A DNA stretch of 64,000 bases from Escherichia coli (GTDB lineage: Bacteria > Pseudomonadota > Gammaproteobacteria > Enterobacterales > Enterobacteriaceae): the NCBI RefSeq assembly GCF_045037415.1, contig NZ_CP173438.1; one strand, 5' to 3'. The notes below the pieces were generated by a model. That model made no database searches. It was given only the letters and a program-made list of their open reading frames with translations, and had not been told where the DNA came from. Position 1 is the first letter of the stretch. Every line of letters starts with the position of its first letter. The position numbers and the translations under genes are program-made. Of this stretch, positions 4,894 to 62,094 are shown piece by piece.

Positions 4894-4970
<77 letters not shown>

Positions 4971-7354: not shown

Positions 7355-7535
7355 ACTGCCTGATGCGCTCCGCTTATCAGGCCTACGAAAACTCTGCAAT
7401 GTATTGAGTTTGCACGATTTTGTAGGTCGGATAAGGCGTTTGCGCCGCATCCGGCATAAACAAAGCGCTCTTTGTCAACAATCTGCATACCCGGTGGCGC
7501 TGTGCCTCTGCGTGCAGCGCCATCCGGCAGCAATA
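7355..7535. repeat. Cluster of REP elements (BIME-like) in the dppA-dppB intergenic region
   Basis: Several GCCTGATGCGC.../GCCGCATCCGGCA... palindromic units. ORF-track entry 7294..7740(-) lies over these repeats and is likely spurious. Confidence 0.5.
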
Positions 7536-9569: not shown

Positions 9570-10553
9570 ATGGCGTTATTAAATGTAGATAAATTATCGG
9601 TGCATTTCGGCGACGAAAGCGCACCGTTCCGCGCTGTAGACCGCATCAGCTACAGCGTAAAACAGGGTGAAGTGGTCGGGATTGTGGGTGAGTCCGGCTC
9701 TGGTAAATCGGTCAGTTCGCTGGCGATTATGGGGCTGATTGATTATCCGGGCCGCGTAATGGCGGAAAAGCTGGAGTTTAACGGTCAGGATTTGCAGCGT
9801 ATCTCAGAAAAAGAGCGCCGCAACCTGGTGGGTGCCGAAGTGGCAATGATCTTCCAGGACCCGATGACCAGCCTTAACCCGTGCTACACCGTGGGTTTCC
9901 AGATTATGGAAGCGATTAAGGTGCATCAAGGCGGCAACAAAAGTACCCGCCGTCAGCGAGCGATTGACCTGCTGAATCTGGTCGGTATTCCCGATCCGGC
10001 ATCGCGTCTGGATGTTTACCCGCATCAGCTTTCCGGCGGCATGAGCCAGCGCGTGATGATCGCCATGGCGATTGCCTGTCGGCCAAAACTGCTGATTGCC
10101 GATGAACCAACCACTGCGCTGGACGTGACCATTCAGGCGCAAATTATCGAACTGCTGCTGGAGCTACAGCAGAAAGAGAACATGGCGCTGGTGTTAATTA
10201 CCCATGACCTGGCGCTGGTGGCGGAAGCGGCACATAAAATTATCGTGATGTATGCAGGCCAGGTAGTAGAAACGGGCGATGCGCACGCTATCTTCCATGC
10301 GCCGCGTCACCCGTATACTCAGGCATTGCTGCGTGCGCTGCCGGAATTTGCTCAGGACAAAGAACGTCTGGCGTCGTTGCCAGGTGTCGTTCCCGGCAAG
10401 TACGACCGCCCGAACGGCTGCCTGCTTAACCCGCGCTGCCCCTACGCCACTGACAAATGCCGTGCTGAAGAACCGGCGCTGAATATGCTCGCTGACGGGC
10501 GTCAGTCCAAATGCCATTACCCACTTGATGATGCCGGGAGGCCGACACTATGA
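9570..10553 (+). CDS. dppD: Dipeptide ABC transporter ATP-binding protein DppD
   Basis: 327 aa, Walker [12 protein letters not shown] signature LSGGMSQR; 4-bp overlap with dppF. Confidence 0.95.
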
Positions 10554-11554
10554 GTACGCATGAGGCCACCCCGCAACAACCGCTGTTGCAGGCTATCGAC
10601 CTGAAAAAACATTATCCGGTGAAGAAAGGCATGTTCGCGCCGGAACGTCTGGTGAAGGCGCTGGATGGCGTTTCGTTTAACCTTGAACGTGGCAAAACGC
10701 TGGCAGTAGTAGGTGAATCTGGCTGCGGTAAATCGACCCTAGGTCGGTTGCTGACGATGATTGAAACGCCCACCGGCGGCGAACTGTATTACCAGGGGCA
10801 GGATCTGCTCAAGCACGATCCGCAGGCGCAGAAGCTACGTCGGCAGAAAATCCAGATTGTCTTCCAGAACCCTTACGGTTCGCTGAATCCGCGTAAAAAA
10901 GTTGGGCAGATTCTCGAAGAGCCGCTGCTGATCAACACCAGCTTAAGCAAAGAACAGCGTCGGGAAAAAGCCCTGTCGATGATGGCGAAAGTCGGCCTGA
11001 AAACCGAGCATTATGACCGCTATCCGCATATGTTCTCCGGCGGTCAGCGTCAGCGTATCGCCATTGCCCGAGGTCTGATGCTCGACCCGGATGTGGTGAT
11101 TGCCGATGAGCCGGTTTCCGCGCTGGACGTCTCAGTGCGTGCGCAGGTGCTGAATCTGATGATGGATTTGCAGCAGGAACTGGGGCTATCTTATGTCTTT
11201 ATCTCGCACGATCTGTCGGTGGTGGAGCACATTGCTGATGAAGTGATGGTGATGTACCTGGGCCGCTGCGTGGAGAAGGGGACGAAGGACCAAATCTTCA
11301 ATAACCCGCGCCACCCGTACACTCAGGCGCTGCTCTCCGCGACACCACGCCTGAACCCGGACGATCGTCGCGAACGCATCAAACTTACCGGTGAACTGCC
11401 AAGCCCGCTGAATCCACCGCCAGGCTGCGCCTTCAACGCCCGCTGTCGTCGGCGCTTCGGCCCCTGCATCCAGTTGCAGCCGCAGCTAAAAGACTACGGC
11501 GGTCAACTGGTAGCTTGTTTTGCCGTTGATCAGGATGAAAATCCGCAGCGTTAA
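10550..11554 (+). CDS. dppF: Dipeptide ABC transporter ATP-binding protein DppF
   Basis: 334 aa, Walker [13 protein letters not shown] signature FSGGQRQR. Confidence 0.95.
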
Positions 11555-11583
11555 CTCACAAAACCGGGGCCATGCGCTCCGGT

Positions 11584-12855
11584 TTACTCAATCAACTTCA
11601 ACAGTGGCGACAAGCATAACAAAATGCCGTACAGCAGAATCATCCAGGCTTTAAACCCGCGAAGTTTTTCCAGTTGTGAGACTTTATAGATCAGGAAAAA
11701 CGGAATGAGGCACGACACAATGCCATATAACGGGCTTCCCAACTGAAAGAACACCAGTACCGATACACGAAACGAAACCCAAATCGTCAACGTAATGACG
11801 ATAAAAGTGCAGATCGCCAGAGTCAGCACGCGTGAGTTAATTTTCCTGGTATCAATAATTCGGCTTAACAGATTGAGAATAATGCCTTTAATGGCCTCGT
11901 GGAAACCGAGATAAATGCCAAAGAATGCAGTCAGTACGGCAAAGATATTCAGCACCGTAGAGGTGATATGAATGATATGCCCAGGGATCACCTGCGCGGC
12001 CAGTGCCAGTGCCGAGATATTTTGTTCAAAGGCAGAAACGGCTTCTTCGTGGCTAATTGAGAAGGTAAACGAAAAGGCAAAAAACAGGATCACCGCGATG
12101 AGCGTGACATAACTAATTCGGTGGGTACGCAGCGCGAGCCGGGTTGCCAGTACTTTATCCGCTTCCCGTTTACGATAGGCAATATTCATTGGGTTAAGTA
12201 CCTGAATAAATACCGCGGAAAAGAAGCAAAATGGAATAGTAAGCAGGACATCGCGGAAAAAGTCGGAGGCTTGCGGGAAGGCGGTTATATTGGCGAAATT
12301 CCAGTGCGGGATCATCGCAAAACCGAACACGACAATAATCCCTACTTTGACCACCACCATTGGTCCGGAAATCTTAAACAGTAATCGTTCACCACCAGAC
12401 GCAATCGCCACCAGTACGGCGAAAATGGCGACTTTATAAAATAGAGATTGAGAAAGATCGGCATCGGTTAAACCGAAGGTTTTCAGGTACGAGGCGCTGT
12501 CGAAAACCACGGAGAGAGAGTAGATAAAAATCCCGTGGATAATCATCAAAAAGTAGATAACCCCGAGGAAAATTCCCCAGTTCTTCCCCAGGTAATGACT
12601 GATAATATCGGTGTAGTCATTACAGGAATCGCTTTCAGAAAGGGTTTTTAAATAAATGTCCTGTACTACCCAGGTGGCAGGATAAGCAATGATCGCTGCG
12701 GTAATAAATACCCAAATTCCCTTCAAGCCAATTTGTACTGGCATCAGCACGGTTCCGGCACCAATCGCCATGCCTATGCATAATAAAACCCAGCCGAAGT
12801 CGTAGCGTGTAAACGGCAATTTCTGATCGTGTTTCGGTAGTGTGTTGTGCTGCAT
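11584..12855 (-). CDS. yhjV: Putative amino acid (HAAAP family) transporter YhjV
   Basis: ORF 11584..12918 trimmed to ATG at 12855 ([15 protein letters not shown]...), 423 aa, multi-TM. Confidence 0.85.
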
Positions 12856-13211
12856 AAAGTCCTGTCCAGAAAGAAGTCGGCCTCGCAAAAATGAATAAAC
12901 CCAGTTTCTCTTGCGCAACAGGTGGAGAAGTCGAATACGCAGTATGTAAAAAATGAGGCAACAGATTCACTGGGGAGGTCGCGAGGAGGCGCAATTCTAC
13001 AAAATTGCGCATTTCACTACTAGTCTGGAGTCAGCCCGGATATGAGCTGCAACTATTGCAAATAAAGAAATTAAGCTGGAAGGCATCACGCAATGAGGAA
13101 GATTGCCGGGTGCTGACGGCAAAAAGCAATCGTAAAATCAGCGGCAAGCCGGAAGGGTTCCGGTGAGGCGCAATGTTGCGGGGGCTTTATCCCTGGTGGC
13201 ATTGGTTGCTG

Positions 13212-13278
13212 GAGAGAGAAAACCCCCGCACGTTGCAGGTATGCACCTGACAACATCACGGGGGCCATTCTTGCATCT
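13212..13278 (-). ncRNA. rdlD: Rdl-type antisense RNA (type I antitoxin), copy 1, approximate bounds
   Basis: Minus-strand segment overlapping the ldr leader about 55-120 nt upstream of the ldr ATG, ending in a GC stem plus U-run (plus-strand GAGAGAGAAAACCCCCG); resembles rdlD as I recall it. Ends not determinable from sequence alone. Confidence 0.4.
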
Positions 13279-13330
13279 AGACCATTCAAGAATAGCCGCG
13301 AAACGTTGTCATTACAACACAGGCGGCTAT

Positions 13331-13438
13331 ATGACGCTCGCAGAGCTGGGCATGGCCTTCTGGCATGATTTAGCGGCTCCGGTCATTGCTGGCATTCTTG
13401 CCAGTATGATCGTGAACTGGCTGAACAAGCGGAAGTAA
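13331..13438 (+). CDS. ldrD: Ldr-family type I toxin peptide (35 aa), copy 1
   Basis: MTLAELGMAFWHDLAAPVIAGILASMIVNWLNKRK, the last 35 codons of ORF-track entry 13163..13438; LdrD-like small hydrophobic peptide. Confidence 0.85.
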   Translation: MTLAELGMAFWHDLAAPVIAGILASMIVNWLNKRK

Positions 13439-13488
13439 CGTGTCATGCGGGCGTCAGGCTGCCGTAATGGCAATTTGCGCCCGGACCA

Positions 13489-13522
13489 GGCCGCAGAGGT
13501 GAAACTCTGCGGCCTTTTTCGT
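13489..13522 (+). terminator. Rho-independent terminator after ldr copy 1
   Basis: GGCCGCAGAG-GTGAAA-CTCTGCGGCC hairpin followed by TTTTT. Confidence 0.6.
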
Positions 13523-13694
13523 AAGAAAAATGCAACGGTTGCAAGCGGATAATATTCTGCGGAATGCGCAGCACAGAGTGAAGAAGTGATAGATTCCGGA
13601 ACAGAAAAACAGTCGTAGAATCAGCGTCAAGCCGGAAGGGTTCCGGTGAGGCGCAATGTTGCGGGGGCTTAATCCCTGGTGGCATTGGTTGCTG

Positions 13695-13761
13695 GAGAGA
13701 GAAAACCCCCGCACGTTGCAGGTATGCACCTGACAACATCACGGGGGCTAATCTTGAACCT
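13695..13761 (-). ncRNA. rdlD: Rdl-type antisense RNA, copy 2, approximate bounds
   Basis: Same position within repeat unit 2 (+483 bp from copy 1). Confidence 0.4.
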
Positions 13762-13813
13762 GAACAACTCAAGAATAGCCGCGAAACGTTGTCATTACAA
13801 CACAGGCGGCTAT

Positions 13814-13921
13814 ATGACGCTCGCAGAGCTGGGCATGGCCTTCTGGCATGATTTAGCGGCTCCGGTCATTGCTGGCATTCTTGCCAGTATGATCGTGAGC
13901 TGGCTGAACAAGCGGAAGTAA
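13814..13921 (+). CDS. ldrD: Ldr-family type I toxin peptide (35 aa), copy 2 (N29S variant)
   Basis: MTLAELGMAFWHDLAAPVIAGILASMIVSWLNKRK, the last 35 codons of ORF 13679..13921. Confidence 0.85.
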   Translation: MTLAELGMAFWHDLAAPVIAGILASMIVSWLNKRK

Positions 13922-13971
13922 CGTGTCATGCGGGCGTCAGGCTGCCGTAATGGCAATTTGCGCCCGGACCA

Positions 13972-14005
13972 GGCCGCAGAGGTGAAACTCTGCGGCCTTT
14001 TTCGT
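13972..14005 (+). terminator. Rho-independent terminator after ldr copy 2
   Basis: Same hairpin plus T-run as after copy 1. Confidence 0.6.
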
Positions 14006-14177
14006 AAGAAAAATGCAACGGTTGCAAGCGGATAATATTCTGCGGAATGCGCAGCACAGAGTGAAGAAGTGACGGATTCCGGAGCAGAAAAACAGTCGTA
14101 GAATCAGCGGCAAGCCGGAAAGGTTCCGGTGAGGCGCAATGTTGCGGGGGCTTTATCCCTGGTGGCATTGGTTGCTG

Positions 14178-14244
14178 GAGAGAGAAAACCCCCGTACGTT
14201 GCAGGTATGCACCTGACAACATCACGGGGGCTAATCTTGAACCT
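14178..14244 (-). ncRNA. rdlD: Rdl-type antisense RNA, copy 3, approximate bounds
   Basis: Same position within repeat unit 3; one substitution in the GC stem relative to copies 1 and 2 (CCCCCGTACG versus CCCCCGCACG). Confidence 0.35.
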
Positions 14245-14296
14245 TAACAACTCAAGAATAGCCGCGAAACGTTGTCATTACAACACAGGCGGCTAT

Positions 14297-14404
14297 ATGA
14301 CGCTCGCAGAGCTGGGCATGGCCTTCTGGCATGATTTAGCGGCTCCGGTCATTGCTGGCATTCTTGCCAGTATGATCGTGAACTGGCTGAACAAGCGGAA
14401 GTAA
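14297..14404 (+). CDS. ldrD: Ldr-family type I toxin peptide (35 aa), copy 3
   Basis: MTLAELGMAFWHDLAAPVIAGILASMIVNWLNKRK, the last 35 codons of ORF 14129..14404; identical to copy 1. Confidence 0.85.
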   Translation: MTLAELGMAFWHDLAAPVIAGILASMIVNWLNKRK

Positions 14405-14489: not shown

Positions 14490-16169
14490 TTACTGCGGGT
14501 AAGGCACCCAGTCGCCGCCGTTCAGGCGAACGTACGGTTTATCCTGGTATTGAATAACTACTGCATTTGAGTTCTCGGAGACCGGTGCTGTTTGTGGTAA
14601 CCCACTGGTGAGTTTTTTCCAGTCAACATTGTCTTCGGTGAAAATCTTGCCATCAAGAACGCGAACCACCAGATCGGAGATAGCCAGGAAGCTGCTCGGT
14701 TGGTCGATGACAATCGGAGCCCCCTGATGTGGTGCCTTCATGCCGAAGAATTTCACCCCAACGGGGACGTCTGTGATAGACGGGCTAGGGATATCACGTA
14801 GACCAGATACCTGCATTCTGTCGCCCTTCAGCGCGCCGCCGTGTTCCGGCACCACGACCACCATCACTTTACGACCCGATTTCTCCAGTTCAGTAAAGAA
14901 GGCGTCCAGTTCATCAAAGAATTTTTGCGCCCGCGCTTTGTAATCCGCTGTTTTGCTGACGCCCGGATAATGGTTGCCGTCATGCAGTGGAAGCGTGTTG
15001 TAGAACGTGGCACTACGGCTGTTTTTATCTTTTTCGGTAACGTCCAGCCAACGGTTAAGCACGGCGGTATCGTCATAAACCGGCGAACCATCAAAGCCCA
15101 GCAAAATAACCGGCAGATTTGTTTGATCCATCAATTCGCTCTGCATGCCGCCATTTTCGCGAACTTCCTTCAAAAAACCACCGAACTGGCCGTTATGTCC
15201 CATCATCAGGTGCTGGGTAAAGCCCAGTTTCGACAGGTTATCAAACAGATAGCAGTCGTTATTTGCCGGTTGATACAGATTAGTGTGCGAAGTCTGCCCG
15301 CAGCTGGCGCGCAGTAAACGGATCGCCGCCGGGCCACTGTAGGAGGTGGCGGAGTTAAAGTTCTTGAACTCAATATCGAAATGCGACCACAGTGGATGCG
15401 ACATCAATCCGGCGGCTTCAATATCCGACCAGGAAAGCGAACAGATATTAATCACCAGTAGTTCAAATGGCTGAGCATCAGCGGGCAGCGAAGACGGGAA
15501 GATCGATTTACGTTTCGCCTCCGCGTTATAGAAATTATTCAGCCAGGCGTTAAGGTTTGCTGTTGTTGGCGGTGCAGTTTGTGCGGGCATATCACCCACT
15601 ATCGGTGCGCCACCCGTCGCCGCAACGGTTGCCGCTGCGTTACCACCCGTCGTTGTTACAGTGGTCGTTGGTTGACCGGCTGGCCACAAGGAGAAACTTG
15701 GTCCCGCCAGGGTAAGTACGTTCAGCCATAGCAGAATGGCAACCACAAAAACGGTAATGCGAATCCATTGTGACAGGAATAACCAGGCCACGAATAAAAC
15801 AAAAATGGCCCCAATCATCTGCCAGTTAATAAAGCGTGTGACAAGATCGATTAAATAATCGGTACTGAACCCCGCCACCTGCGAACCCTGGCTCATTATG
15901 CTTTCCGGACCAGGCAACCAGGTGTCATGCCAGAACAAAGCAAAGCCGATCGGCAGGGCAATCCAGTGGCGCAAGCGATGCAGGCTATAGTGCGGAATGG
16001 GCATCAGTAGAAACGCGGCAAACACCAAATTGAGGAGCGGATGGAAGTTAAGATATCCCGCCCACAACAGGCCGAACTTAACCAGAAAATAGAAGTTCCA
16101 GCCGGAAAGGCCGCGCCAGTATTGCCAGAGGGAAGAAGGCATGGCGGTATTTTGCGTAAATTGAGTCAT
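14490..16169 (-). CDS. bcsG: Cellulose biosynthesis protein BcsG
   Basis: 559 aa with N-terminal TM segments, recognised as BcsG (YhjU); operon bcsEFG. Confidence 0.9.
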
Positions 16170-16357
16170 TTTTTGGTTGCCCTGGCTTTTTCCGTGCGGC
16201 GTAACGTCCCGGCCGGTTTAACATAACGAGGTTTAGCAAAGAACAAACGTAAGGTGTCGCGAATGCGTCGCAAAGAGTGCCGCGCCAGATAGCCCAGCGG
16301 GAAAAATATCAGTGCGCAAACGACAATAATTTCAATGATATCGCTGATGGTCATCAT
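16166..16357 (-). CDS. bcsF: Cellulose biosynthesis small membrane protein BcsF
   Basis: 63 aa ([31 protein letters not shown]...), single TM; 4-bp overlaps with bcsE and bcsG. Confidence 0.85.
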
Positions 16358-17925
16358 GATGAGCGCTCCACAGCATCATCTAACAGTCGCATTGGTTCTG
16401 GTATTCGTCGCCAGTGGCGACCATCATGCTCGGCATTGATGACCGGTTTAGAACTTTGCGCTAAAGGCAGCGGCATGCCCCATTGTTCTGGGGCAAGCAG
16501 GCGCATCTGCACCAGCTCGGCACTGATTTGATCATCTTCAAACCAGACCATTCGGTTTGAGAAAATGTCGCCAGTAGGCAATGGGAAAATATGATTCAAC
16601 GCGGTATCCAGATCGTTAATCCGACAGAATGAGAGAAACAGCACCAGCCGATTACCGCCAATGGTCATGATATCGCCGGTACGGTTAGGGCGACATAGCG
16701 TCAGGGCTTGCTCAACGCGGATACCCGGTACCGGACGTAGGGCAACCAGAACGCCTTTACCGTGGGCAGGTAATAGAGGGTTATTCATCATGTTGTTGAC
16801 GGCATTACAGAACACATCCCACTTCTGGAAACCACGCAGTTTGAGCGGCTGGGTCATTGACAGCAAGGTAGTGATATCTTCCGGCACATAGCGACTAAAC
16901 TTCTGCCCTTGCACGCTTTCGATCATCGTCAGACAGCGGGAGAGTGGCGCATTCCACGGGATAACCATATTTGCACCGCAGGCCAATAATAAACGTTCAT
17001 CGGTGGCGCGCAGGCTGGCGGTATTTTCCCGTACGAGGATTTTCATCGCACTACCGCGCTGGCGACGCAGAGTATGAATGCTGCGGGCCAGTGGCTCGAT
17101 TTGCGCATTTTGCTGTAAAGAAAAGACCACCGTCGCCGCCTGAGCGGTACGGGCTTCATTGAACAGGACTTCGTTATTGTTGAACAGTTGCCAGTGTTCC
17201 GATAGCGGCGGCGCACCTTCCAGTACAGCAACATTACTCAGAATGCGTTTTTCGTCGCTGCGTGGTTGGATTTCCGCCTCTTGGTGTTGAACTAATGTCC
17301 AGCAACCATTTTGTTGCTGAACGCTAAGTTGCTGACGGGCGCTGACCCCTTTTTCGTTGCACCAGAAAGCAATATCCAGCAAATGTTGGTCGCCCTGAAA
17401 ACGCAAACTGGCAAGACCAAAAAGTGACCGATATTCCTCAAGTAACAATGAAAATTGTTTATCGTTATTATTTCCGGAATTAATTACCAAAAGCGAACAA
17501 TGGTTTAGCCGGCTCCATTTATTCATTTTATCCAACCATGAGCGAAGCCGCTCGGCAGGAATGTTTTGCCATGCATTATTTGCGCAAACAAGAATAAAAA
17601 GGTAATTATGGGGATCAATAGAACACTGCAAATCACGGGCCAAATAGTATAGACCTTTTTCATGATTTAGCATCGAAAATAATGTTATTTTTTCCGGCCC
17701 TTGAGAATCATCTAATTGAAAGATTTTCGCTGGATCGCTGTCCATGCTAATGACCGCGACGTGTGCGGTTTCAGCCTGGGATGCAATTGTTTGATTCGCC
17801 AGACTGATAGCATCTTCATGGCGATCGACGTTAAACCACCAGACGCCGCCTGCTGGCATATGTCGCAGCTCATCCCATAATGATGAGATACCGATAGAGA
17901 ATACAGGGTCCACAATGTCCCTCAT
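16354..17925 (-). CDS. bcsE: Cellulose biosynthesis c-di-GMP-binding protein BcsE
   Basis: 523 aa, recognised as BcsE (YhjS); first gene of bcsEFG, divergent from bcsR. Confidence 0.9.
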
Positions 17926-18197
17926 GTCAACATTTTGTCTGATTATCAGTTTACTAGCGAAAGCTAAGAAATAAACCTACCATTGAAATTAAAACTTATC
18001 AGATTTAGCATGTGAATCAATTTAGCAGGTCACAAGACATGTGATTTTAGTCTTTTCGTTTTTAACTTTTTCTGTTGCATAACGGAAAGTCAAAAAGTGA
18101 GCACATTCCCGTCTCGCCGTAAACAATAAACCGACGAAATGCTCACAGTTAGAATTGTCTCATGAACGGTACGGTTATTTCATAGGGATCAAGAAAA

Positions 18198-18386
18198 ATG
18201 AATAACAATGAACCAGATACTCTGCCTGATCCCGCGATAGGCTATATCTTCCAGAATGATATTTTGGCGTTAAAGCAGGCATTTTCACTGCCTGATATTG
18301 ATTATGCCGATATTTCCCAACGCGAACAGTTGGCCGCGGCATTAAAACGCTGGCCGTTGCTGGCAGAGTTTGCGCAACAAAAGTAG
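18198..18386 (+). CDS. bcsR: Cellulose biosynthesis protein BcsR
   Basis: 62 aa (MNNNEPDTLPDPAIGYIFQNDILALKQAF...), first gene of bcsRQABZC. Confidence 0.85.
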   Translation: MNNNEPDTLPDPAIGYIFQNDILALKQAFSLPDIDYADISQREQLAAALKRWPLLAEFAQQK

Positions 18387-18397
18387 GGGATTGGTGA

Positions 18398-19150
18398 ATG
18401 GCCGTACTGGGATTGCAGGGGGTTCGGGGAGGCGTGGGGACAACAACCATCACCGCCGCATTAGCCTGGTCATTACAAATGTTGGGAGAAAATGTCCTGG
18501 TGGTCGATGCCAGCCCGGACAACTTGTTGCGCCTGTCATTTAACGTTGATTTTACCCACCGTCAGGGTTGGGCCAGAGCTATGCTGGATGGCCAGGACTG
18601 GCGTGACGCCGGGTTGCGCTATACCTCGCAGCTCGATTTGCTGCCTTTTGGTCAGTTATCGATTGAAGAACAAGAAAATCCACAGCACTGGCAAACCCGG
18701 CTGAGCGATATTTGCTCCGGCTTACAGCAACTAAAAGCCAGCGGGCGTTACCAGTGGATTTTAATTGACTTACCGCGTGATGCCTCGCAGATAACCCACC
18801 AGCTGCTGAGTTTGTGCGATCACTCGCTGGCAATCGTCAATGTGGATGCCAACTGCCATATCCGACTGCATCAGCAAGCGCTGCCGGATGGTGCACATAT
18901 TTTGATTAATGACTTCCGTATTGGCAGCCAGGTTCAGGACGATATTTACCAGCTTTGGTTGCAAAGCCAGCGCCGATTGCTGCCGATGCTCATTCATCGT
19001 GATGAAGCGATGGCTGAATGTCTGGCAGCTAAGCAACCAGTCGGTGAATATCGCAGTGATGCGCTGGCGGCTGAAGAGATACTGACGCTGGCGAACTGGT
19101 GCCTGTTGAATTATTCCGGGCTGAAAACGCCAGTCGGGAGTGCATCATGA
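18398..19150 (+). CDS. bcsQ: Cellulose biosynthesis protein BcsQ (ParA/MinD-like ATPase), intact reading frame
   Basis: 250 aa uninterrupted (MAVLGLQGVRGGVGTTTITAALAWSL...); codon 6 is Leu (TTG), where K-12 carries a stop. Confidence 0.9.
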   Translation: MAVLGLQGVRGGVGTTTITAALAWSLQMLGENVLVVDASPDNLLRLSFNVDFTHRQGWARAMLDGQDWRDAGLRYTSQLDLLPFGQLSIEEQENPQHWQTRLSDICSGLQQLKASGRYQWILIDLPRDASQITHQLLSLCDHSLAIVNVDANCHIRLHQQALPDGAHILINDFRIGSQVQDDIYQLWLQSQRRLLPMLIHRDEAMAECLAAKQPVGEYRSDALAAEEILTLANWCLLNYSGLKTPVGSAS

Positions 19151-21765
19151 GTATCCTGACCCGGTGGTTGCTTATCCCGCCGGTCAACGCACGGCTTATT
19201 GGGCGTTATCGCGATTATCGTCGTCACGGCGCGTCGGCTTTCAGCGCGACGCTCGGCTGTTTCTGGATGATCCTGGCCTGGATTTTTATTCCGCTGGAGC
19301 ACCCGCGCTGGCAGCGTATTCGCGCAGAACATAAAAACCTGTATCCGCATATCAACGCCTCGCGTCCGCGTCCGCTGGACCCGGTCCGTTATCTTATTCA
19401 AACATGCTGGTTACTGATCGGTGCATCGCGCAAAGAAACGCCGAAACCGCGCAGGCGGGCATTTTCAGGTCTACAAAATATTCGTGGACGTTACCATCAA
19501 TGGATGAATGAGCTGCCTGAGCGCGTTAGCCATAAAACACAGCATCTTGATGAGAAAAAAGAGCTCGGTCATTTGAGTGCCGGGACGCGGCGGTTGATCC
19601 TCGGTATCATCGTCACCTTCTCGCTGATTCTGGCGTTAATCTGCGTTACTCAGCCGTTTAACCCGCTAGCGCAGTTTATCTTCCTGATGCTGCTGTGGGG
19701 GGTAGCGCTGATCGTACGGCGGATGCCGGGGCGCTTCTCGGCGCTGATGCTGATTGTGCTGTCGCTGACCGTTTCTTGCCGTTATATCTGGTGGCGTTAC
19801 ACCTCGACGTTAAACTGGGACGATCCGGTCAGCCTGGTGTGCGGGCTTATTCTGCTCTTCGCTGAAACGTACGCGTGGATTGTGCTGGTGCTCGGCTATT
19901 TCCAGGTCGTATGGCCGCTGAATCGTCAGCCGGTGCCATTGCCGAAAGATATGTCGCTGTGGCCGTCGGTGGATATCTTTGTCCCGACTTACAACGAAGA
20001 TCTCAACGTGGTGAAAAATACCATTTACGCTTCGCTGGGTATCGACTGGCCGAAAGACAAGCTGAACATCTGGATCCTCGATGACGGCGGCAGGGAAGAG
20101 TTTCGCCAGTTTGCGCAAAACGTGGGGGTGAAATATATCGCCCGTACCACTCATGAACATGCGAAAGCGGGCAACATCAACAATGCGCTGAAATATGCCA
20201 AAGGCGAGTTCGTGTCGATATTCGACTGCGACCACGTACCAACGCGATCGTTCCTGCAAATGACCATGGGCTGGTTCCTGAAAGAGAAACAGCTGGCGAT
20301 GATGCAGACGCCGCACCACTTCTTCTCGCCGGATCCGTTTGAACGCAACCTGGGGCGTTTTCGTAAAACGCCGAACGAAGGCACGCTGTTTTATGGTCTG
20401 GTGCAGGACGGCAATGATATGTGGGATGCCACTTTCTTCTGCGGTTCATGTGCGGTGATTCGCCGTAAGCCGCTGGATGAGATTGGCGGTATTGCTGTCG
20501 AAACGGTAACCGAAGATGCGCACACTTCTCTGCGTCTGCACCGTCGTGGCTACACCTCAGCGTATATGCGTATTCCGCAGGCAGCGGGGCTGGCGACCGA
20601 AAGTCTCTCGGCGCATATCGGTCAGCGTATTCGCTGGGCGCGCGGGATGGTGCAAATCTTCCGTCTCGATAACCCGCTCACCGGTAAAGGGCTGAAGTTT
20701 GCTCAGCGGCTGTGCTATGTCAACGCCATGTTCCACTTCTTGTCGGGCATTCCACGACTGATCTTCCTGACTGCGCCGCTGGCGTTCCTGCTGTTTCATG
20801 CCTACATCATCTACGCGCCAGCGTTGATGATCGCCCTGTTCGTGCTACCGCATATGATCCATGCCAGCCTGACTAACTCGAAGATCCAGGGCAAATATCG
20901 CCACTCTTTCTGGAGTGAAATCTACGAAACGGTGCTGGCGTGGTATATCGCACCACCGACGCTGGTGGCGCTGATTAACCCGCACAAAGGCAAATTTAAC
21001 GTCACCGCCAAAGGTGGACTGGTGGAAGAAGAGTACGTCGACTGGGTGATCTCGCGGCCCTACATCTTCCTTGTTCTGCTCAACCTGGTGGGCGTAGCGG
21101 TTGGGATCTGGCGCTACATCTATGGTCCGCCAACCGAGATGCTCACCGTGGTCGTCAGTATGGTGTGGGTATTCTACAACCTGATTATTCTCGGCGGCGC
21201 AGTCGCAGTATCGGTAGAAAGCAAACAGGTACGCCGATCGCACCGCGTGGAGATGACGATGCCCGCAGCAATTGCCCGCGAAGATGGTCACCTCTTCTCG
21301 TGTACCGTTCAGGATTTCTCCGACGGTGGTTTGGGGATCAAGATCAACGGTCAGGCGCAGATTCTGGAAGGGCAGAAAGTGAATCTGTTGCTTAAACGCG
21401 GTCAGCAGGAATACGTCTTCCCGGCTCAGGTGGCGCGCGTGATGGGTAATGAAGTTGGGCTGAAATTAATGCCGCTCACTACCCAGCAACATATCGATTT
21501 TGTGCAGTGTACGTTTGCCCGTGCGGATACATGGGCGCTCTGGCAGGACAGCTACCCGGAAGATAAGCCGCTGGAAAGTCTGCTGGATATTCTGAAGCTC
21601 GGCTTCCGTGGCTACCGCCATCTGGCGGAATTTGCGCCTTCTTCGGTGAAGGGCATATTCCGTGTGCTGACTTCTCTGGTTTCCTGGGTTGTATCGTTTA
21701 TTCCGCGCCGCCCGGAGCGGAGCGAAACGGCACAACCATCGGATCAGGCTTTGGCTCAACAATGA
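19147..21765 (+). CDS. bcsA: Cellulose synthase catalytic subunit BcsA
   Basis: ORF 19099..21765 trimmed to ATG at 19147 (MSILTRWLLIPPVNARLIGRY...), 872 aa; glycosyltransferase core (QTPH, QRIRW) and C-terminal PilZ-like region; ATGA overlap with bcsQ stop. Confidence 0.95.
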   Translation: MSILTRWLLIPPVNARLIGRYRDYRRHGASAFSATLGCFWMILAWIFIPLEHPRWQRIRAEHKNLYPHINASRPRPLDPVRYLIQTCWLLIGASRKETPKPRRRAFSGLQNIRGRYHQWMNELPERVSHKTQHLDEKKELGHLSAGTRRLILGIIVTFSLILALICVTQPFNPLAQFIFLMLLWGVALIVRRMPGRFSALMLIVLSLTVSCRYIWWRYTSTLNWDDPVSLVCGLILLFAETYAWIVLVLGYFQVVWPLNRQPVPLPKDMSLWPSVDIFVPTYNEDLNVVKNTIYASLGIDWPKDKLNIWILDDGGREEFRQFAQNVGVKYIARTTHEHAKAGNINNALKYAKGEFVSIFDCDHVPTRSFLQMTMGWFLKEKQLAMMQTPHHFFSPDPFERNLGRFRKTPNEGTLFYGLVQDGNDMWDATFFCGSCAVIRRKPLDEIGGIAVETVTEDAHTSLRLHRRGYTSAYMRIPQAAGLATESLSAHIGQRIRWARGMVQIFRLDNPLTGKGLKFAQRLCYVNAMFHFLSGIPRLIFLTAPLAFLLFHAYIIYAPALMIALFVLPHMIHASLTNSKIQGKYRHSFWSEIYETVLAWYIAPPTLVALINPHKGKFNVTAKGGLVEEEYVDWVISRPYIFLVLLNLVGVAVGIWRYIYGPPTEMLTVVVSMVWVFYNLIILGGAVAVSVESKQVRRSHRVEMTMPAAIAREDGHLFSCTVQDFSDGGLGIKINGQAQILEGQKVNLLLKRGQQEYVFPAQVARVMGNEVGLKLMPLTTQQHIDFVQCTFARADTWALWQDSYPEDKPLESLLDILKLGFRGYRHLAEFAPSSVKGIFRVLTSLVSWVVSFIPRRPERSETAQPSDQALAQQ

Positions 21766-21775: not shown

Positions 21776-24115
21776 ATGAAAAGAAAAATATTCTGGATTT
21801 GTGCAGTGGCTCTGGGGATGAGTGCGTTCCCCTCTTTCATGACGCAGGCGACGCCAGCAACGCAACCACTGATCAATGCTGAGCCAGCTGTAGCCGCCCA
21901 GGCGGAGCAAAATCCGCAGGTGGGGCAAGTGATGCCGGGCGTGCAGGGCGCAGATGCGCCAGTCGTGGCGCAGAACGGTCCTTCCCGTGATGTGAAGCTG
22001 ACCTTTGCGCAAATTGCGCCGCCGCCGGGCAGCATGGTGCTACGTGGCATTAACCCGAACGGCAGCATTGAGTTTGGTATGCGCAGCGATGAAGTGGTGA
22101 CGAAGGCGATGCTCAACCTCGAATACACGCCATCGCCATCATTACTGCCTGTCCAGTCGCAGTTAAAGGTTTATCTCAATGATGAACTGATGGGCGTGCT
22201 GCCAGTGACCAAAGAACAGTTGGGTAAAAAAACGCTGGCACAAATGCCCATTAACCCGCTGTTTATTACTGATTTCAACCGTGTGCGGCTGGAGTTTGTC
22301 GGCCATTATCAGGACGTGTGCGAAAACCCGGCCAGCACCACGCTTTGGCTGGATGTTGGGCGGAGCAGTGGACTGGATCTGACCTATCAGACCCTGAATG
22401 TGAAGAATGACCTGTCACACTTCCCGGTGCCATTCTTTGACCCGCGTGATAACCGCACCAACACCTTGCCGATGGTCTTTGCGGGTGCGCCGGATGTTGA
22501 GCTGCAACAAGCATCTGCCATTGTCGCCTCGTGGTTTGGTTCGCGTTCTGGCTGGCGTGGGCAGAACTTCCCGGTGCTCTATAACCAACTGCCGGATCGC
22601 AATGCCATTGTCTTTGCCACCAATGACAAACGCCCGGACTTCCTGCGCGATCATCCGGCGGTAAAAGCCCCGGTGATTGAGATGATTAACCATCCGCAGA
22701 ATCCTTACGTCAAACTGCTGGTGGTGTTTGGTCGTGACGACAAAGACCTGTTGCAGGCAGCGAAAGGTATCGCTCAGGGTAACATTCTGTTCCGTGGTGA
22801 AAGTGTGGTAGTGAATGAAGTGAAACCGCTGCTACCGCGTAAACCGTACGATGCGCCGAACTGGGTGCGTACCGATCGTCCTGTCACCTTTGGTGAACTG
22901 AAAACCTATGAAGAACAATTACAATCCAGCGGTCTTGAGCCAGCAGCGATTAACGTTTCGCTAAACCTGCCGCCGGATCTCTACCTGATGCGCAGTACCG
23001 GCATTGATATGGATATTAATTACCGCTACACCATGCCGCCGGTGAAAGACAGTTCGCGGATGGATATCAGCCTGAATAACCAGTTCCTGCAATCCTTCAA
23101 CCTGAGCAGCAAACAGGAGGCGAACCGCCTGCTGCTGCGTATTCCGGTATTACAAGGTTTGCTGGATGGCAAAACGGATGTCTCTATTCCGGCGCTGAAA
23201 CTGGGCGCGACCAACCAGTTGCGGTTCGACTTTGAGTATATGAACCCGATGCCGGGCGGTTCGGTGGATAACTGTATTACCTTCCAGCCGGTGCAGAATC
23301 ATGTGGTGATTGGTGACGACTCCACCATCGACTTCTCGAAGTATTACCACTTCATCCCGATGCCGGATCTACGCGCCTTTGCTAACGCGGGCTTCCCGTT
23401 CAGCCGGATGGCGGATTTGTCGCAAACCATCACCGTGATGCCGAAAACGCCAAACGAAGCACAGATGGAAACCTTGCTGAATACCGTTGGCTTTATCGGT
23501 GCGCAGACGGGCTTCCCGGCGATTAACCTGACGGTGACCGATGATGGCAGCACCATTCAGGGCAAAGATGCCGACATCATGATCGTCGGTGGTATCCCGG
23601 ACAAACTGAAAGACGATAAGCAGATCGACCTGTTGGTGCAGGCGACCGAAAGCTGGGTGAAAACGCCGATGCGCCAGACCCCGTTCCCCGGTATTGTGCC
23701 GGACGAGAGCGATCGCGCGGCAGAAACCCAGTCAACGCTGACCTCTTCCGGTGCGATGGCGGCGGTGATTGGCTTCCAGTCGCCGTATAACGACCAGCGC
23801 AGCGTGATTGCGCTGCTGGCAGATAGCCCACGCGGTTATGAAATGCTTAACGATGCGGTGAACGATAGCGGCAAACGCGCCACCATGTTCGGTTCGGTCG
23901 CGGTGATCCGCGAGTCCGGTATCAACAGCCTACGTGTTGGCGATGTTTATTACGTAGGTCATCTGCCGTGGTTCGAGCGCTTGTGGTATGCGCTGGCAAA
24001 CCATCCGATTCTGCTGGCGGTGCTGGCGGCTATCAGTGTGATATTGCTGGCGTGGGTACTGTGGCGTCTGCTGCGTATTATTAGTCGTCGTCGTCTTAAC
24101 CCGGATAACGAGTAA
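21776..24115 (+). CDS. bcsB: Cellulose synthase periplasmic subunit BcsB
   Basis: ORF 21689..24115 trimmed to ATG at 21776 (MKRKIFWICAVALGMSAFPSF...), 779 aa with signal peptide and C-terminal TM anchor. Confidence 0.95.
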   Translation: MKRKIFWICAVALGMSAFPSFMTQATPATQPLINAEPAVAAQAEQNPQVGQVMPGVQGADAPVVAQNGPSRDVKLTFAQIAPPPGSMVLRGINPNGSIEFGMRSDEVVTKAMLNLEYTPSPSLLPVQSQLKVYLNDELMGVLPVTKEQLGKKTLAQMPINPLFITDFNRVRLEFVGHYQDVCENPASTTLWLDVGRSSGLDLTYQTLNVKNDLSHFPVPFFDPRDNRTNTLPMVFAGAPDVELQQASAIVASWFGSRSGWRGQNFPVLYNQLPDRNAIVFATNDKRPDFLRDHPAVKAPVIEMINHPQNPYVKLLVVFGRDDKDLLQAAKGIAQGNILFRGESVVVNEVKPLLPRKPYDAPNWVRTDRPVTFGELKTYEEQLQSSGLEPAAINVSLNLPPDLYLMRSTGIDMDINYRYTMPPVKDSSRMDISLNNQFLQSFNLSSKQEANRLLLRIPVLQGLLDGKTDVSIPALKLGATNQLRFDFEYMNPMPGGSVDNCITFQPVQNHVVIGDDSTIDFSKYYHFIPMPDLRAFANAGFPFSRMADLSQTITVMPKTPNEAQMETLLNTVGFIGAQTGFPAINLTVTDDGSTIQGKDADIMIVGGIPDKLKDDKQIDLLVQATESWVKTPMRQTPFPGIVPDESDRAAETQSTLTSSGAMAAVIGFQSPYNDQRSVIALLADSPRGYEMLNDAVNDSGKRATMFGSVAVIRESGINSLRVGDVYYVGHLPWFERLWYALANHPILLAVLAAISVILLAWVLWRLLRIISRRRLNPDNE

Positions 24116-24121: not shown

Positions 24122-25228
24122 ATGAATGTGTTGCGTAGTGGACTCGTGACGATGCTGCTGCTGGCTGCCTTTAGTGTTCAGGCAGCCTGTACCTGGCCTG
24201 CCTGGGAGCAGTTTAAAAAGGATTACATCAGTCAGGAAGGGCGCGTCATCGACCCCAGCGACGCGCGCAAAATCACCACCTCCGAAGGGCAAAGTTACGG
24301 CATGTTCTTTGCCCTGGCGGCTAACGACCGTGCAGCTTTCGATAATCTTCTCGACTGGACGCAGAACAATCTCGCTCAGGGTTCTTTAAAAGAAAATTTG
24401 CCCGCCTGGCTGTGGGGCAAGAAAGAGAACAGTAAGTGGGAAGTGCTGGACAGCAATTCGGCCTCCGATGGTGATGTCTGGATGGCCTGGTCGTTGCTGG
24501 AGGCGGGGCGTTTGTGGAAAGAGCAGCGTTATACCGACATCGGCAGCGCATTGCTAAAACGTATCGCGCGGGAGGAAGTGGTGACGGTGCCTGGGCTGGG
24601 CTCCATGTTGTTACCGGGCAAAGTGGGTTTTGCTGAGGATAACAGCTGGCGTTTTAACCCCAGCTACCTGCCGCCGACGCTGGCGCAGTATTTCACCCGC
24701 TTTGGCGCGCCGTGGACCACGCTGCGCGAAACCAATCAACGTTTATTGCTGGAAACCGCCCCGAAAGGCTTTTCGCCAGACTGGGTGCGCTATGAGAAAG
24801 ACAAAGGCTGGCAGCTAAAAGCCGAAAAAACGTTGATCAGCAGCTACGACGCTATCCGCGTTTACATGTGGGTAGGCATGATGCCTGACAGCGATCCGCA
24901 AAAAGCGCGGATGCTCAACCGGTTTAAACCGATGGCGACATTCACTGAGAAAAACGGTTATCCGCCGGAAAAAGTGGATGTGGCTACGGGGAAAGCGCAG
25001 GGTAAAGGACCGGTCGGTTTTTCTGCCGCCATGCTGCCCTTTTTACAAAACCGCGATGCGCAGGCCGTTCAGCGCCAGCGCGTGGCCGATAACTTTCCCG
25101 GCAGCGATGCCTATTACAACTATGTGCTGACCCTGTTTGGACAAGGCTGGGATCAACACCGTTTCCGCTTCTCGACAAAAGGTGAGTTATTACCTGACTG
25201 GGGCCAGGAATGCGCAAATTCACACTAA
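24122..25228 (+). CDS. bcsZ: Endo-1,4-beta-glucanase BcsZ (GH8)
   Basis: ORF 24116..25228 trimmed to ATG at codon 3 ([21 protein letters not shown]...), 368 aa, signal peptide. Confidence 0.9.
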
Positions 25229-28200
25229 ACATATTCACGCTTTCCCTCGGTCTGGCCGTCATGCCGATGGTCGAGGCAGCACCAACCGCTCAGCAACAGT
25301 TGCTGGAGCAAGTTCGGTTAGGCGAAGCGACCCATCGTGAAGACCTGGTGCAACAGTCGTTGTATCGGCTGGAACTTATTGATCCGAATAACCCGGATGT
25401 GATTGCTGCCCGTTTTCGTTCTCTGTTACGTCAGGGCGATATTGATGGCGCACAAAAACAGCTCGATCGGCTGTCGCAGTTAGCGCCGAGTTCAAATGCG
25501 TATAAATCGTCGCGGACTACGATGCTGCTTTCCACGCCGGATGGTCGTCAGGCACTGCAACAGGCAAGATTGCAGGCAACTACCGGTCATGCGGAAGAAG
25601 CTGTGGCGAGTTACAACAAACTGTTCAACGGTGCGCCGCCGGAAGGTGACATTGCTGTCGAGTACTGGAGTACGGTGGCGAAAATTCCGGCTCGCCGTGG
25701 CGAAGCGATTAATCAGCTAAAGCGCATTAATGCGGATACGCCGGGCAACACGGGCCTGCAAAACAATCTGGCGCTATTGCTGTTTAGTAGCGATCGCCGT
25801 GACGAAGGCTTTGCCGTCCTGGAACAAATGGCGAAATCGAACGCCGGGCGCGAAGGGGCCTCTAAAATCTGGTACGGGCAGATTAAAGACATGCCCGTCA
25901 GCGATGCCAGCGTGCAGGCACTGAAAAAATATCTCTCGATCTTTAGCGATGGCGATAGCGTGGCTGCTGCGCAATCGCAACTGGCAGAACAGCAAAAACA
26001 GCTGGCCGATCCTGCTTTCCGCGCTCGTGCGCAAGGTTTAGCGGCGGTGGACTCTGGCATGGCGGGTAAAGCCATTCCCGAACTACAACAGGCGGTGCGG
26101 GCGAACCCGAAAGACAGTGAGGCTCTGGGGGCGCTGGGCCAGGCGTATTCCCAGAAAGGTGATCGCGCCAATGCAGTGGCGAATCTGGAAAAAGCCCTCG
26201 CGCTGGATCCGCACAACAGCAATAACGACAAATGGAACAGTCTGCTGAAAGTAAACCGCTACTGGCTGGCGATCCAGCAGGGCGATGCCGCGCTGAAAGC
26301 CAATAATCCTGACCGGGCAGAACGGCTGTTCCAGCAGGCACGTAATGTCGATAACACCGACAGCTATGCAGTGCTTGGGCTGGGCGATGTGGCGATGGCG
26401 CGCAAAGATTATCCCGCCGCCGAACGCTATTACCAGCAGACCTTGCGTATGGACAGCGGCAACACTAACGCCGTGCGCGGGCTGGCGAATATTTACCGCC
26501 AGCAGTCGCCAGAAAAAGCCGAAGCGTATATCGCATCGCTCTCTGCCAGCCAGCGGCGCAGCATTGATGATATCGAACGCAGCCTGCAAAACGACCGTCT
26601 GGCACAGCAGGCAGAGGCACTGGAAAACCAGGGGAAATGGGCGCAGGCGGCAGCACTTCAGCGGCAACGACTGGCGCTGGACCCCGGCAGTGTATGGATT
26701 ACTTACCGACTTTCGCAGGATCTCTGGCAAGCCGGACAACGCAGCCAGGCCGATACGTTAATGCGCAATCTGGCGCAGCAGAAGCCGAACGACCCGGAGC
26801 AGGTTTACGCTTACGGGCTGTATCTCTCCGGTCACGACCAGGACAGAGCGGCGCTGGCGCATATCAACAGCCTGCCGCGCGCGCAGTGGAACAGCAATAT
26901 TCAGGAGCTGGTTAATCGACTGCAAAACGATCAGGTGCTGGAAACCGCTAATCGCCTGCGAGAAAACGGTAAAGAGGCAGAAGCGGAAGCGCTGCTGCGC
27001 CAGCAACCGCCTTCCTCGCGTATTGACCTCACGCTGGCTGACTGGGCGCAGCAGCGACGTGATTACACCGCCGCCCGCGCGGCTTATCAGAACGTTTTGA
27101 CGCGCGAGCCCACTAACGCCGATGCCATTCTTGGTCTGACGGAAGTGGATATTGCTGCCGGTGACAAAGCGGCGGCACGTAGCCAGCTGGCGAAACTGCC
27201 TGCCACTGATAACGCCTCGCTGAACACACAGCGGCGCGTGGCGCTGGCACAGGCGCAGCTTGGCGATACCGCAGCGGCGCAGCAGACATTTAATAAGTTG
27301 ATCCCGCAGGCAAAATCTCAGCCACCGTCGATGGAAAGCGCGATGGTACTGCGTGATGGTGCGAAGTTTGAAGCGCAGGCGGGCGATCCAATGCAGGCGC
27401 TGGAAACCTACAAAGACGCCATGGTTGCATCCGGTGTGACCACGACGCGTCCGCAGGATAACGACACCTTTACCCGGCTGACCCGTAACGACGAGAAAGA
27501 TGACTGGCTGAAACGCGGCGTGCGCAGCGATGCGGCGGACCTCTATCGCCAGCAGGATCTTAACGTCACTCTCGAGCACGATTACTGGGGTTCGAGCGGC
27601 ACCGGTGGTTACTCCGATCTGAAAGCGCACACCACTATGTTGCAGGTGGACGCGCCCTATTCTGACGGGCGGATGTTCTTTCGCAGTGATTTCGTCAATA
27701 TGAACGTCGGCAGTTTCTCCACTAATGCCGATGGCAAATGGGATGACAACTGGGGCACCTGTACATTACAGGACTGTAGCGGCAACCGCAGCCAGTCGGA
27801 TTCCGGTGCCAGCGTGGCGGTCGGCTGGCGAAATGACGTCTGGAGCTGGGATATCGGTACCACGCCGATGGGCTTCAACGTGGTGGATGTGGTCGGCGGC
27901 ATCAGTTACAGCGATGATATCGGGCCGCTGGGTTACACCGTTAACGCCCACCGTCGGCCTATCTCCAGTTCTTTGCTGGCCTTTGGTGGGCAAAAAGACT
28001 CTCCGAGCAATACCGGGAAAAAATGGGGCGGCGTGCGTGCCGACGGCGTGGGGCTAAGTCTGAGCTACGATAAAGGTGAAGCAAACGGCGTCTGGGCATC
28101 GCTTAGCGGTGATCAGTTAACCGGTAAAAATGTCGAAGATAACTGGCGCGTGCGCTGGATGACGGGCTATTACTATAAGGTCATCAACCAGAACAATCGC

Positions 28201-28683
28201 CGCGTCACAATCGGCCTGAACAACATGATCTGGCATTACGACAAAGACCTGAGTGGCTACTCACTCGGTCAGGGCGGTTACTACAGTCCGCAGGAATACC
28301 TGTCGTTTGCCATACCGGTGATGTGGCGGGAGCGCACGGAAAACTGGTCGTGGGAGCTGGGGGCGTCTGGCTCGTGGTCGCATTCACGCACCAAAACCAT
28401 GCCGCGTTATCCGCTGATGAATCTGATCCCGACCGACTGGCAGGAAGAAGCTGCGCGGCAATCCAACGATGGCGGCAGCAGTCAGGGCTTTGGCTACACG
28501 GCGCGGGCATTACTTGAACGACGTGTTACTTCCAACTGGTTTGTCGGCACGGCAATTGATATCCAGCAGGCAAAAGATTACGCACCCAGCCATTTCCTGC
28601 TCTACGTACGTTATTCCGCCGCCGGATGGCAGGGTGACATGGATTTACCACCGCAGCCGCTGATACCTTACGCCGACTGGTAA
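25210..28683 (+). CDS. bcsC: Cellulose synthase outer-membrane subunit BcsC (TPR domains plus beta-barrel)
   Basis: 1157 aa, signal peptide, TPR-like repeats, C-terminal beta-barrel-like region; 19-bp overlap with bcsZ. Confidence 0.95.
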
Positions 28684-28764: not shown

Positions 28765-30753
28765 TTGCGCGTAAGTCGCTCGTTAACAATCAAGCAGATG
28801 GCAATGGTGGCAGCCGTTGTCCTGGTGTTCGTTTTTATTTTTTGCACCGTTTTGCTGTTCCATCTGGTCCAGCAGAATCGCTATAACACGGCTACGCAAC
28901 TGGAAAGCATTGCTCGCTCTGTCCGCGAACCCTTATCTTCTGCCATTTTGAAAGGCGATATTCCCGAAGCGGAAGCTATTCTTGCCAGCATTAAACCGGC
29001 AGGCGTGGTCAGCCGTGCCGATGTAGTGCTGCCCAACCAGTTCCAGGCGCTGCGTAAAAGTTTTATTCCAGAGCGTCCGGTGCCGGTAATGGTTACTCGC
29101 CTGTTTGAGCTACCGGTGCAAATCTCGCTGGGCGTTTACTCGCTGGAACGTCCGGCAAACCCGCAGCCAATTGCCTATCTGGTGCTACAGGCGGATTCCT
29201 TCCGCATGTATAAGTTCGTGATGAGCACCCTCTCAACGTTAGTGACCATTTACTTACTTTTGTCGTTAATATTGACTGTGGCGATTAGCTGGTGCATTAA
29301 CCGCCTGATTTTGCATCCATTACGCAATATTGCTCGCGAACTTAACGCCATCCCACCCCAGGATCTTGTTGGTCACCAACTGGCATTACCGCGTCTGCAT
29401 CAGGACGATGAAATCGGTATGTTGGTGCGCAGTTACAACCTCAACCAGCAATTGCTGCAGCGCCATTATGAAGAACAGAACGAAAATGCGATGCGCTTCC
29501 CGGTGTCGGATTTGCCGAACAAAGCCTTGCTGATGGAGATGCTGGAGCAGGTGGTGGCGCGTAAACAAACCACCGCGCTGATGATCATCACCTGTGAAAC
29601 CCTGCGTGATACTGCGGGTGTGCTGAAAGAGGCGCAACGAGAAATTCTGCTGCTGACGCTGGTGGAAAAACTCAAATCGGTACTGTCGCCACGCATGATC
29701 CTCGCGCAGATTAGCGGTTATGACTTTGCTGTCATTGCCAACGGTGTACAGGAACCGTGGCACGCTATCACATTAGGTCAGCAAGTGCTCACTATCATGA
29801 GCGAGCGCCTGCCGATTGAACGTATTCAACTCCGTCCGCACTGTAGCATTGGCGTGGCGATGTTCTACGGCGATCTCACCGCCGAACAGCTTTACAGTCG
29901 CGCTATTTCTGCGGCATTTACCGCTCGCCATAAAGGCAAAAATCAGATTCAGTTCTTTGATCCGCAGCAGATGGAAGCCGCCCAGAAGCGGTTGACGGAA
30001 GAGAGCGATATCCTTAATGCACTGGAAAATCATCAGTTTGCGATTTGGTTACAGCCACAGGTCGAGATGACCAGCGGTAAACTGGTCAGTGCGGAAGTGT
30101 TACTGCGTATCCAGCAACCGGATGGCAGTTGGGACCTGCCGGATGGCTTAATCGATCGCATTGAGTGCTGTGGGCTGATGGTTACCGTCGGTCACTGGGT
30201 GCTGGAAGAGTCCTGTCGATTGCTTGCTGCCTGGCAAGAGCGCGGCATTATGCTGCCCTTGTCGGTAAACCTCTCAGCGCTGCAACTGATGCATCCAAAT
30301 ATGGTGGCGGATATGCTGGAACTGTTAACCCGCTATCGCATTCAGCCGGGAACACTGATTCTGGAAGTGACAGAAAGCCGACGTATTGACGATCCTCATG
30401 CTGCGGTGGCAATCCTCCGTCCGCTGCGCAATGCCGGAGTTCGGGTGGCGCTGGATGATTTCGGCATGGGCTACGCAGGGCTGCGTCAGCTGCAGCATAT
30501 GAAATCGTTGCCAATCGACGTACTGAAAATCGACAAAATGTTTGTTGAAGGTTTGCCGGAAGATAGCAGCATGATTGCTGCAATTATCATGCTGGCGCAG
30601 AGCCTGAACCTACAAATGATTGCCGAAGGCGTGGAGACTGAAGCACAACGCGACTGGCTGGCAAAAGCGGGCGTTGGTATTGCCCAGGGCTTCCTTTTTG
30701 CTCGCCCACTCCCTATTGAAATCTTCGAAGAGAGTTACCTGGAAGAAAAATAG
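28765..30753 (+). CDS. pdeK: c-di-GMP phosphodiesterase PdeK (HAMP-GGDEF-EAL membrane protein)
   Basis: 662 aa from the track's TTG start ([15 protein letters not shown]...); N-terminal TM, degenerate GGDEF and EAL-type C-terminal domain. The true start could instead be a downstream ATG (codon 12 or 14). Confidence 0.85.
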
Positions 30754-49373: not shown

Positions 49374-49389
49374 AGTTTTACTCAGACAT

Positions 49390-60916: not shown

Positions 60917-60964
60917 GCAAAACTCCGTTACGACATTACGGCGCGGACATGCCGCGCCGGGGGA

Positions 60965-62082: not shown

Positions 62083-62094
62083 AAATCACTCCTG

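Follow-up and report, generated by a model that had tools for sequence, protein, structure and literature searches.

The bcsQ gene at 18398-19150 of the window, the whole 64-kb stretch of Escherichia coli DNA analysed here, is intact; this observation is real and is confirmed by what follows. The gene is very probably a wild-type bcsQ within a complete type II cellulose locus, made up of bcsRQABZC and the divergent bcsEFG, on an ST131 chromosome of phylogroup B2 that has the capacity to make pEtN-cellulose. This capacity is predicted from nine intact genes, from the catalytic and ligand motifs of their products, and from identity to strain 81009, whose csgD, adrA/dgcC, and rpoS are annotated as intact. 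Regulation from beyond the window decides whether the strain produces cellulose, at what time, and in what amount. The preliminary description, which had taken the open bcsQ frame as a sign of a functional cellulose operon, is supported at sequence level.

The bcsQ frame and its junction with the following gene are defined by two features:

18398-19150, plus strand: bcsQ, 250 codons, encoding a MinD/ParA-like ATPase of the SIMIBI class; TTG stands at codon 6 (18413-18415) and AGC (Ser) at codon 39.
19147-19150, plus strand: ATGA overlap of the bcsQ stop codon (TGA) and the bcsA start codon (ATG); the K-12 junction is the same.

The frame starts with ATG, runs through 250 sense codons, and ends with TGA, whereas the random chance of an open frame of 250 codons is about 6e-6, i.e. 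(61/64)^250. In the alignment with MG1655, the TTG of codon 6 faces a TAG; the region reads ATGGCCGTACTGGGATTGCAG in the window and ATGGCCGTACTGGGATAGCAG in K-12. The K-12-type null allele, TAG at codon 6, is absent from the window. Hence, the uninterrupted 250-codon frame, the TTG at codon 6, the ATGA overlap, and the premature K-12 stop, all of them put forward in the preliminary description, are found as described. The overlap suggests that translation of bcsA is coupled to that of bcsQ. One claim has to be qualified: the K-12 stop had been said to abolish cellulose production through polarity on bcsA. The stop is there, and polarity is one of two published explanations, since loss of BcsQ and possible polarity on bcsA were both left open (PMC5944007) and secretion cannot proceed without BcsQ (PMC7840130). 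Neither defect applies to the window, because ribosomes can read through bcsQ to the ATGA.

The identity of the gene as bcsQ is borne out by an end-to-end match of its product to the NCBIfam model NF007460 (1-250/250, E = 2.4e-163, 541.5 bits for a cutoff of 399). TIGR03371 is also matched (296 bits, cutoff 158), and BcsQ is an equivalog member, full-length and above cutoff. The residues to be looked for were taken from the published study of the protein (PMC7840130). In that study, Thr15 replaces the cis Lys in the P-loop, R10 pairs with D150, N152 and R156 are trans-acting, and N171 touches the adenine (PMC7840130). The window protein has R10, T15, T16, T17, S39, D41, D150, N152, R156, and N171. 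The full signature is thereby present, with the deviant P-loop, the R10-D150 pair, N152/R156, N171, and a residue 39 that is either Cys or Ser (here Ser), and every residue named as important in PMC7840130 is kept.

The gene lies within the following set:

14490-16169, minus strand: bcsG, 559 codons, cellulose phosphoethanolamine transferase; TIGR03368, 817 bits; C243, S278, H396, E442, and H443 present.
16166-16357, minus strand: bcsF, 63 codons, membrane polypeptide; TIGR03493, 116 bits; identical to K-12 and UTI89.
16354-17925, minus strand: bcsE, 523 codons, c-di-GMP-binding regulator, first gene of the divergent bcsEFG; NF011619, 1-523/523, 1186 bits.
17926-18197, no strand: bcsE/bcsR intergenic region, 272 bp, divergent regulatory region; length as in K-12 (8 SNPs) and UTI89 (1 SNP), no indel.
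18198-18386, plus strand: bcsR (yhjR), 62 codons, first gene of bcsRQABZC; NF040717, 75.8 bits (cutoff 46).
19147-21765, plus strand: bcsA, 872 codons, c-di-GMP-activated cellulose synthase catalytic subunit; NF008558, 1-872/872, 1791 bits (cutoff 992).
21776-24115, plus strand: bcsB, 779 codons, periplasmic co-polymerase subunit; NF008325, 1386 bits, full length; no internal stops.
24122-25228, plus strand: bcsZ, 368 codons, periplasmic endoglucanase; NF008305, 594 bits; E55 and D243 present.
25210-28683, plus strand: bcsC, 1157 codons, TPR and outer-membrane channel; NF008520, 1-1157/1157, 2199 bits (cutoff 858); no internal stops.
28765-30753, plus strand: pdeK (annotated hmsP), c-di-GMP phosphodiesterase adjoining the operon directly downstream of bcsC; full length, no stops.

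All of bcsG, F, E, R, Q, A, B, Z, and C are exactly as long as in K-12, begin and end with standard codons, and are free of internal stops, and the nine products (9/9) match NCBIfam equivalog models over their full length, above the curated cutoffs. The claim of eight further full-length bcs genes therefore holds. The nine genes and the divergent arrangement of bcsRQABZC and bcsEFG are those of a type II Bcs locus, with order and lengths equal to those of K-12 and UTI89. BcsR differs from K-12 by one amino acid and from UTI89 by none. In BcsA, the motifs HAKAGN (338), DCD (360), FFCG (430), TED (455), QRIRW (493), and FNVTAK (617) are found, followed by RRSHR (696) and DFSDGG (723) in the PilZ domain. 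We take the motif definitions to be DxD, TED, and QxxRW for the glycosyltransferase-2 domain, FxVTxK for the gating loop, and RxxxR and DxSxxG for c-di-GMP binding by PilZ. The glycosyltransferase-2, gating-loop, and PilZ motifs expected of a type II BcsA are present. So are the BcsG residues C243, S278, H396, E442, and H443, presumably the pEtN-transferase active site, and the acids E55 and D243 of BcsZ, presumably catalytic; this is a weaker test than the others. A scan of 17800-19300 for consensus promoters and terminators gave nothing above shuffled expectation and is therefore uninformative on expression.

How such a locus would work can be proposed from published studies of E. coli 1094, K-12 AR3110, and UTI89. 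By analogy with these strains, BcsQ and BcsR would form ATP-bound “sandwich” dimers that dock, jointly with BcsE and BcsF, on the BcsA PilZ domain; the accumulation of BcsA and secretion would depend on them. Indeed, BcsR and BcsQ are absolutely required for secretion of E. coli-type cellulose, and BcsQ, isolated with BcsR as a sandwich dimer holding ATP, binds BcsE, contacts the BcsA PilZ domain, and influences how much BcsA is present in the membrane (PMC7840130). Ribosomes traversing the entire bcsQ to the ATGA junction would keep up the translation of bcsA. BcsA and BcsB would then polymerise UDP-glucose once PilZ has bound c-di-GMP, of which DgcC, controlled by CsgD/RpoS, would be the local source. 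Synthesis has been described as dependent on c-di-GMP, which DgcC provides locally and which PdeK, the local sink for the cellulose synthase, takes away (PMC7397504). Finally, BcsG would add phosphoethanolamine, and BcsZ and BcsC would serve periplasmic passage and export.

The source lineage of the window can be specified. The whole 64 kb are identical to positions 750425-814424 of NZ_CP021179.1 from E. coli 81009, a representative of the ST131 C1-M27 clade (PMC5823992), and at least 25 complete genomes, each assembled independently, share the 22-kb bcs region at 100% identity. Outside the window, two genes of strain 81009 are disrupted: torS is annotated as frameshifted (extracted locus L007, 49593-50000), and a type VI secretion gene of the ImcF family is split by ISEc12 (extracted locus L010, 1716-7634). 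The gene order in the window is tag, yhjY, eptB, dpp, yhjV, three ldr/rdlD modules, bcs, pdeK, dctA, pdeH, the gad/hde acid island, and the chu heme genes. Features around the bcs locus are the following:

4894-4967, plus strand: tRNA-Pro.
5064-5144, minus strand: naRNA4, Rfam match above gathering score.
7379-7421, minus strand: ES036, Rfam match above gathering score.
13217-13282, 13700-13765, and 14183-14248, minus strand: rdlD antisense RNAs.
13331-13438, 13814-13921, and 14297-14404, plus strand: ldr toxin coding sequences.
35195-35962: pdeH, c-di-GMP phosphodiesterase, full length.
49385-49498, minus strand: GadY, Rfam match above gathering score.
55278-55349, minus strand: ES205, Rfam match above gathering score.

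The Rfam matches and the tRNA-Pro are those that one expects in this part of the E. coli genome. The ldr and rdlD genes form three tandem type I toxin-antitoxin modules (13217-14404) between yhjV and bcsG. At 59157-64000, after yhiD and the end of the acid-fitness island, stand chu/shu heme-uptake genes (an ATP-binding subunit, shuU, chuY, hutX, hutW, and chuT). The chu/shu heme genes mark phylogroups B2, D, E, and F, and their presence would fit an ST131 origin.

The frequency of the intact allele was assessed by exact searches with 63-mers centred on bcsQ codon 6 in 5,426 complete E. coli genomes, about 5,245 of which have the locus. The TAG 63-mer of K-12 occurs in 348 genomes, the TTG + GTG 63-mer in 3,552, and the TTG + GTT 63-mer, which is the haplotype of the window, in 1,082; by exact 63-mers, at least 4,634 of the roughly 5,245 genomes have TTG at codon 6. 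Among the 60 TAG matches listed, essentially all are K-12 laboratory derivatives (MG1655, DH5alpha, DH1, C600, J53, HMS174, RV308). Within E. coli, the uninterrupted bcsQ is both the ancestral form and the most frequent one, and it is no special trait of the source strain. The reading of the window gene is thus correct but ordinary, because the intact form is the species norm. Loss of function at some point in bcsRQABZC-bcsEFG is frequent in many sequence types, reaching 100% of the sampled strains in ST11, ST1193, and ST167, 94% in ST405, 74% in ST69, and 68% in ST95; ST131 is absent from the list of those with more than 25% of bcs-disrupted strains (PMC10881479). In SK1144, a close relative of the window, a single G>A in bcsE (nt 1382, window position about 16544) creates W461*, and the gene is annotated as a pseudogene (extracted locus 10205-11776). 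This is a sporadic bcs loss in the lineage of the window, where bcsE is intact.

The preliminary description had gone on to predict a cellulose-proficient strain. This stands as a statement of genetic capacity, since the locus is intact, but not as a reading of phenotype: genotype does not give phenotype, and “cellulose-proficient” therefore means “has the machinery”. That description had also pointed to csgD and dgcC elsewhere in the genome. In strain 81009, which carries the identical 64 kb, csgD (216 aa), csgBAC, and csgEFG are annotated intact, as are adrA/dgcC (371 aa) and rpoS (330 aa), both full length. Even so, the locus may be intact but silent in the standard assays (Congo red or calcofluor at 28 °C and low salt), with CsgD, RpoS, or c-di-GMP signalling set low in the lineage. 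We give this reading, which contests the prediction of phenotype and not the annotation of the gene, a little less than an even chance. Among 39 O25b:H4 ST131 isolates, the rdar morphotype (curli and cellulose) was seen in 9/19 of clade B and in only 2/20 (10%) of clade C (PMC7671891). Chronic-wound “Bone” isolates of ST131 develop rdar late or not at all, yet a wound isolate has a high rdar biofilm capacity when AdrA is over-expressed. In pandemic lineages, cellulose and curli output followed the transcript levels of csgD and adrA and not the bcs sequence (PMC4794485), and BL21 and H10407 are calcofluor-negative though free of nonsense mutations in bcs (PMC5944007). Both negative regulators in the window, pdeK and pdeH, are intact. 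On the other side stand the intact annotations of csgD, adrA, and rpoS in 81009, and the fact that rdar mixes curli with cellulose, so that an rdar-negative isolate is not a proven cellulose-negative one; moreover, part of the ST131 isolates do show rdar, a morphotype that needs cellulose (PMC7671891).

Two further readings would place a defect within the locus itself. An error of sequencing or assembly that masks a lesion behind an open frame has next to no probability: nothing was found in its favour, and it is ruled out by the identity of the 22-kb segment in at least 25 independent assemblies and of the 64 kb to strain 81009. It is improbable that missense changes have silently abolished or weakened function while leaving the frames open. 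Such an effect would involve three codons at which the window differs from K-12, 1094, and UTI89:

18512-18514: BcsQ codon 39, Ser in the window and Cys in the other three.
19585-19587: BcsA codon 147, Thr in the window and Ala in the other three.
21118-21120: BcsA codon 658, Ile in the window and Phe in the other three.

By exact 63-mer search, S39 is present in 550 genomes, T147 in 546, and I658 in 566, so that each allele is confined to about 10% of complete genomes, a frequency consistent with markers of a single abundant lineage. Canonical SIMIBI ATPases have their water-activating aspartate at the position equivalent to residue 39, and a change of this residue to Asp (C39D) alters cellulose output by stimulating secretion (PMC7840130); missense changes have also been proposed as the cause of the cellulose-negative BL21 and H10407 (PMC5944007). 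However, S39 may be regarded as benign, because enterobacterial BcsQ naturally has either Cys or Ser at this position and the double mutant C39A-D41A does not lower calcofluor binding (PMC7840130). The two BcsA changes, A147T and F658I, are conservative and lie outside the catalytic and PilZ motifs, and all three alleles are fixed in a very successful lineage, some isolates of which are rdar-positive (PMC7671891). A wild-type locus whose output is set by regulation remains our preferred reading.

An intact bcsQ in ST131 is already known biology: the allele is the ordinary wild type, the locus is well characterised, and the clone is well sequenced. The only non-trivial novelty would be a modulation of cellulose output by the ST131 missense alleles, which is unlikely; that the three ST131-fixed substitutions jointly tune secretion in a quantitative manner is, in our view, very improbable. 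If they did, they could contribute to the rarity of the rdar morphotype in the pandemic clone and would represent a missense route to the “cellulose attenuation” reached by nonsense mutations in other ExPEC clones. The practical value of the result is one of annotation: this ST131 segment keeps the complete pEtN-cellulose machinery, in contrast to ST95, ST1193, ST69, ST405, and ST11, which often or always carry bcs loss-of-function (PMC10881479). It may be of use to studies of why certain invasive lineages have given up cellulose while others retain it.

Among known systems, BcsQ of the window is close to that of E. coli 1094, known from crystal structures (PDB 6YAR, 6YAY, 6YB3, 6YB5, 6YBU) and cryo-EM (9FNN, 9FP0, 9FP2). 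The 1094 protein also has 250 residues, 247 of them identical to the window, and its gene likewise sits between bcsR and bcsA. The functional, crystallised protein (6YBU/6YAR) thus differs at 3/250 positions, with C39, N172, and K249 in 1094 vs. S39, D172, and A249 in the window. Both share T15 in place of the Walker A Lys, the R10-D150 pair, the trans-acting N152 and R156, and N171. From this 98.8% identity, window BcsQ would be expected to dimerise with BcsR in an ATP-dependent manner and to be needed for cellulose secretion.

In K-12 (b3534; MG1655, W3110), bcsQ has the same locus, the same 753-nt length, and the same ATGA junction, with 18 nucleotide differences. It is a pseudogene, annotated as such in NC_000913.3, with TAG at codon 6 and C39 where the window has TTG and S39. 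The nonsense codon has reportedly been known since 2013. In one K-12 record, NZ_CP014225.1 (extracted locus 12273-13001), RefSeq PGAP calls bcsQ as a 242-aa coding sequence that restarts past the TAG at the GTG of codon 9; this codon is GTT in the window (18422-18424). Changing codon 6 from TAG to TTG turns W3110 into the cellulose-proficient strain AR3110 (PMC7397504, PMC5944007, PMC4287979), and it is to this repaired K-12 strain that bcsQ of the window functionally corresponds (PMC7397504).

UTI89 (ST95, phylogroup B2) has the same bcs gene order as the window, including three ldr/rdlD modules adjoining bcsG, where K-12 has a single one (ldrD/rdlD) between yhjV and bcsG. BcsR and BcsF are identical in the two strains and the other Bcs proteins are 1-7 residues apart; UTI89 has C39, T107, and M244 in BcsQ and A147 and F658 in BcsA, all positions at which the window differs. 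The phosphodiesterases PdeH and PdeK, both negative inputs to matrix production, show one and two amino-acid differences, respectively. UTI89 is, we assume, a producer of pEtN-cellulose.
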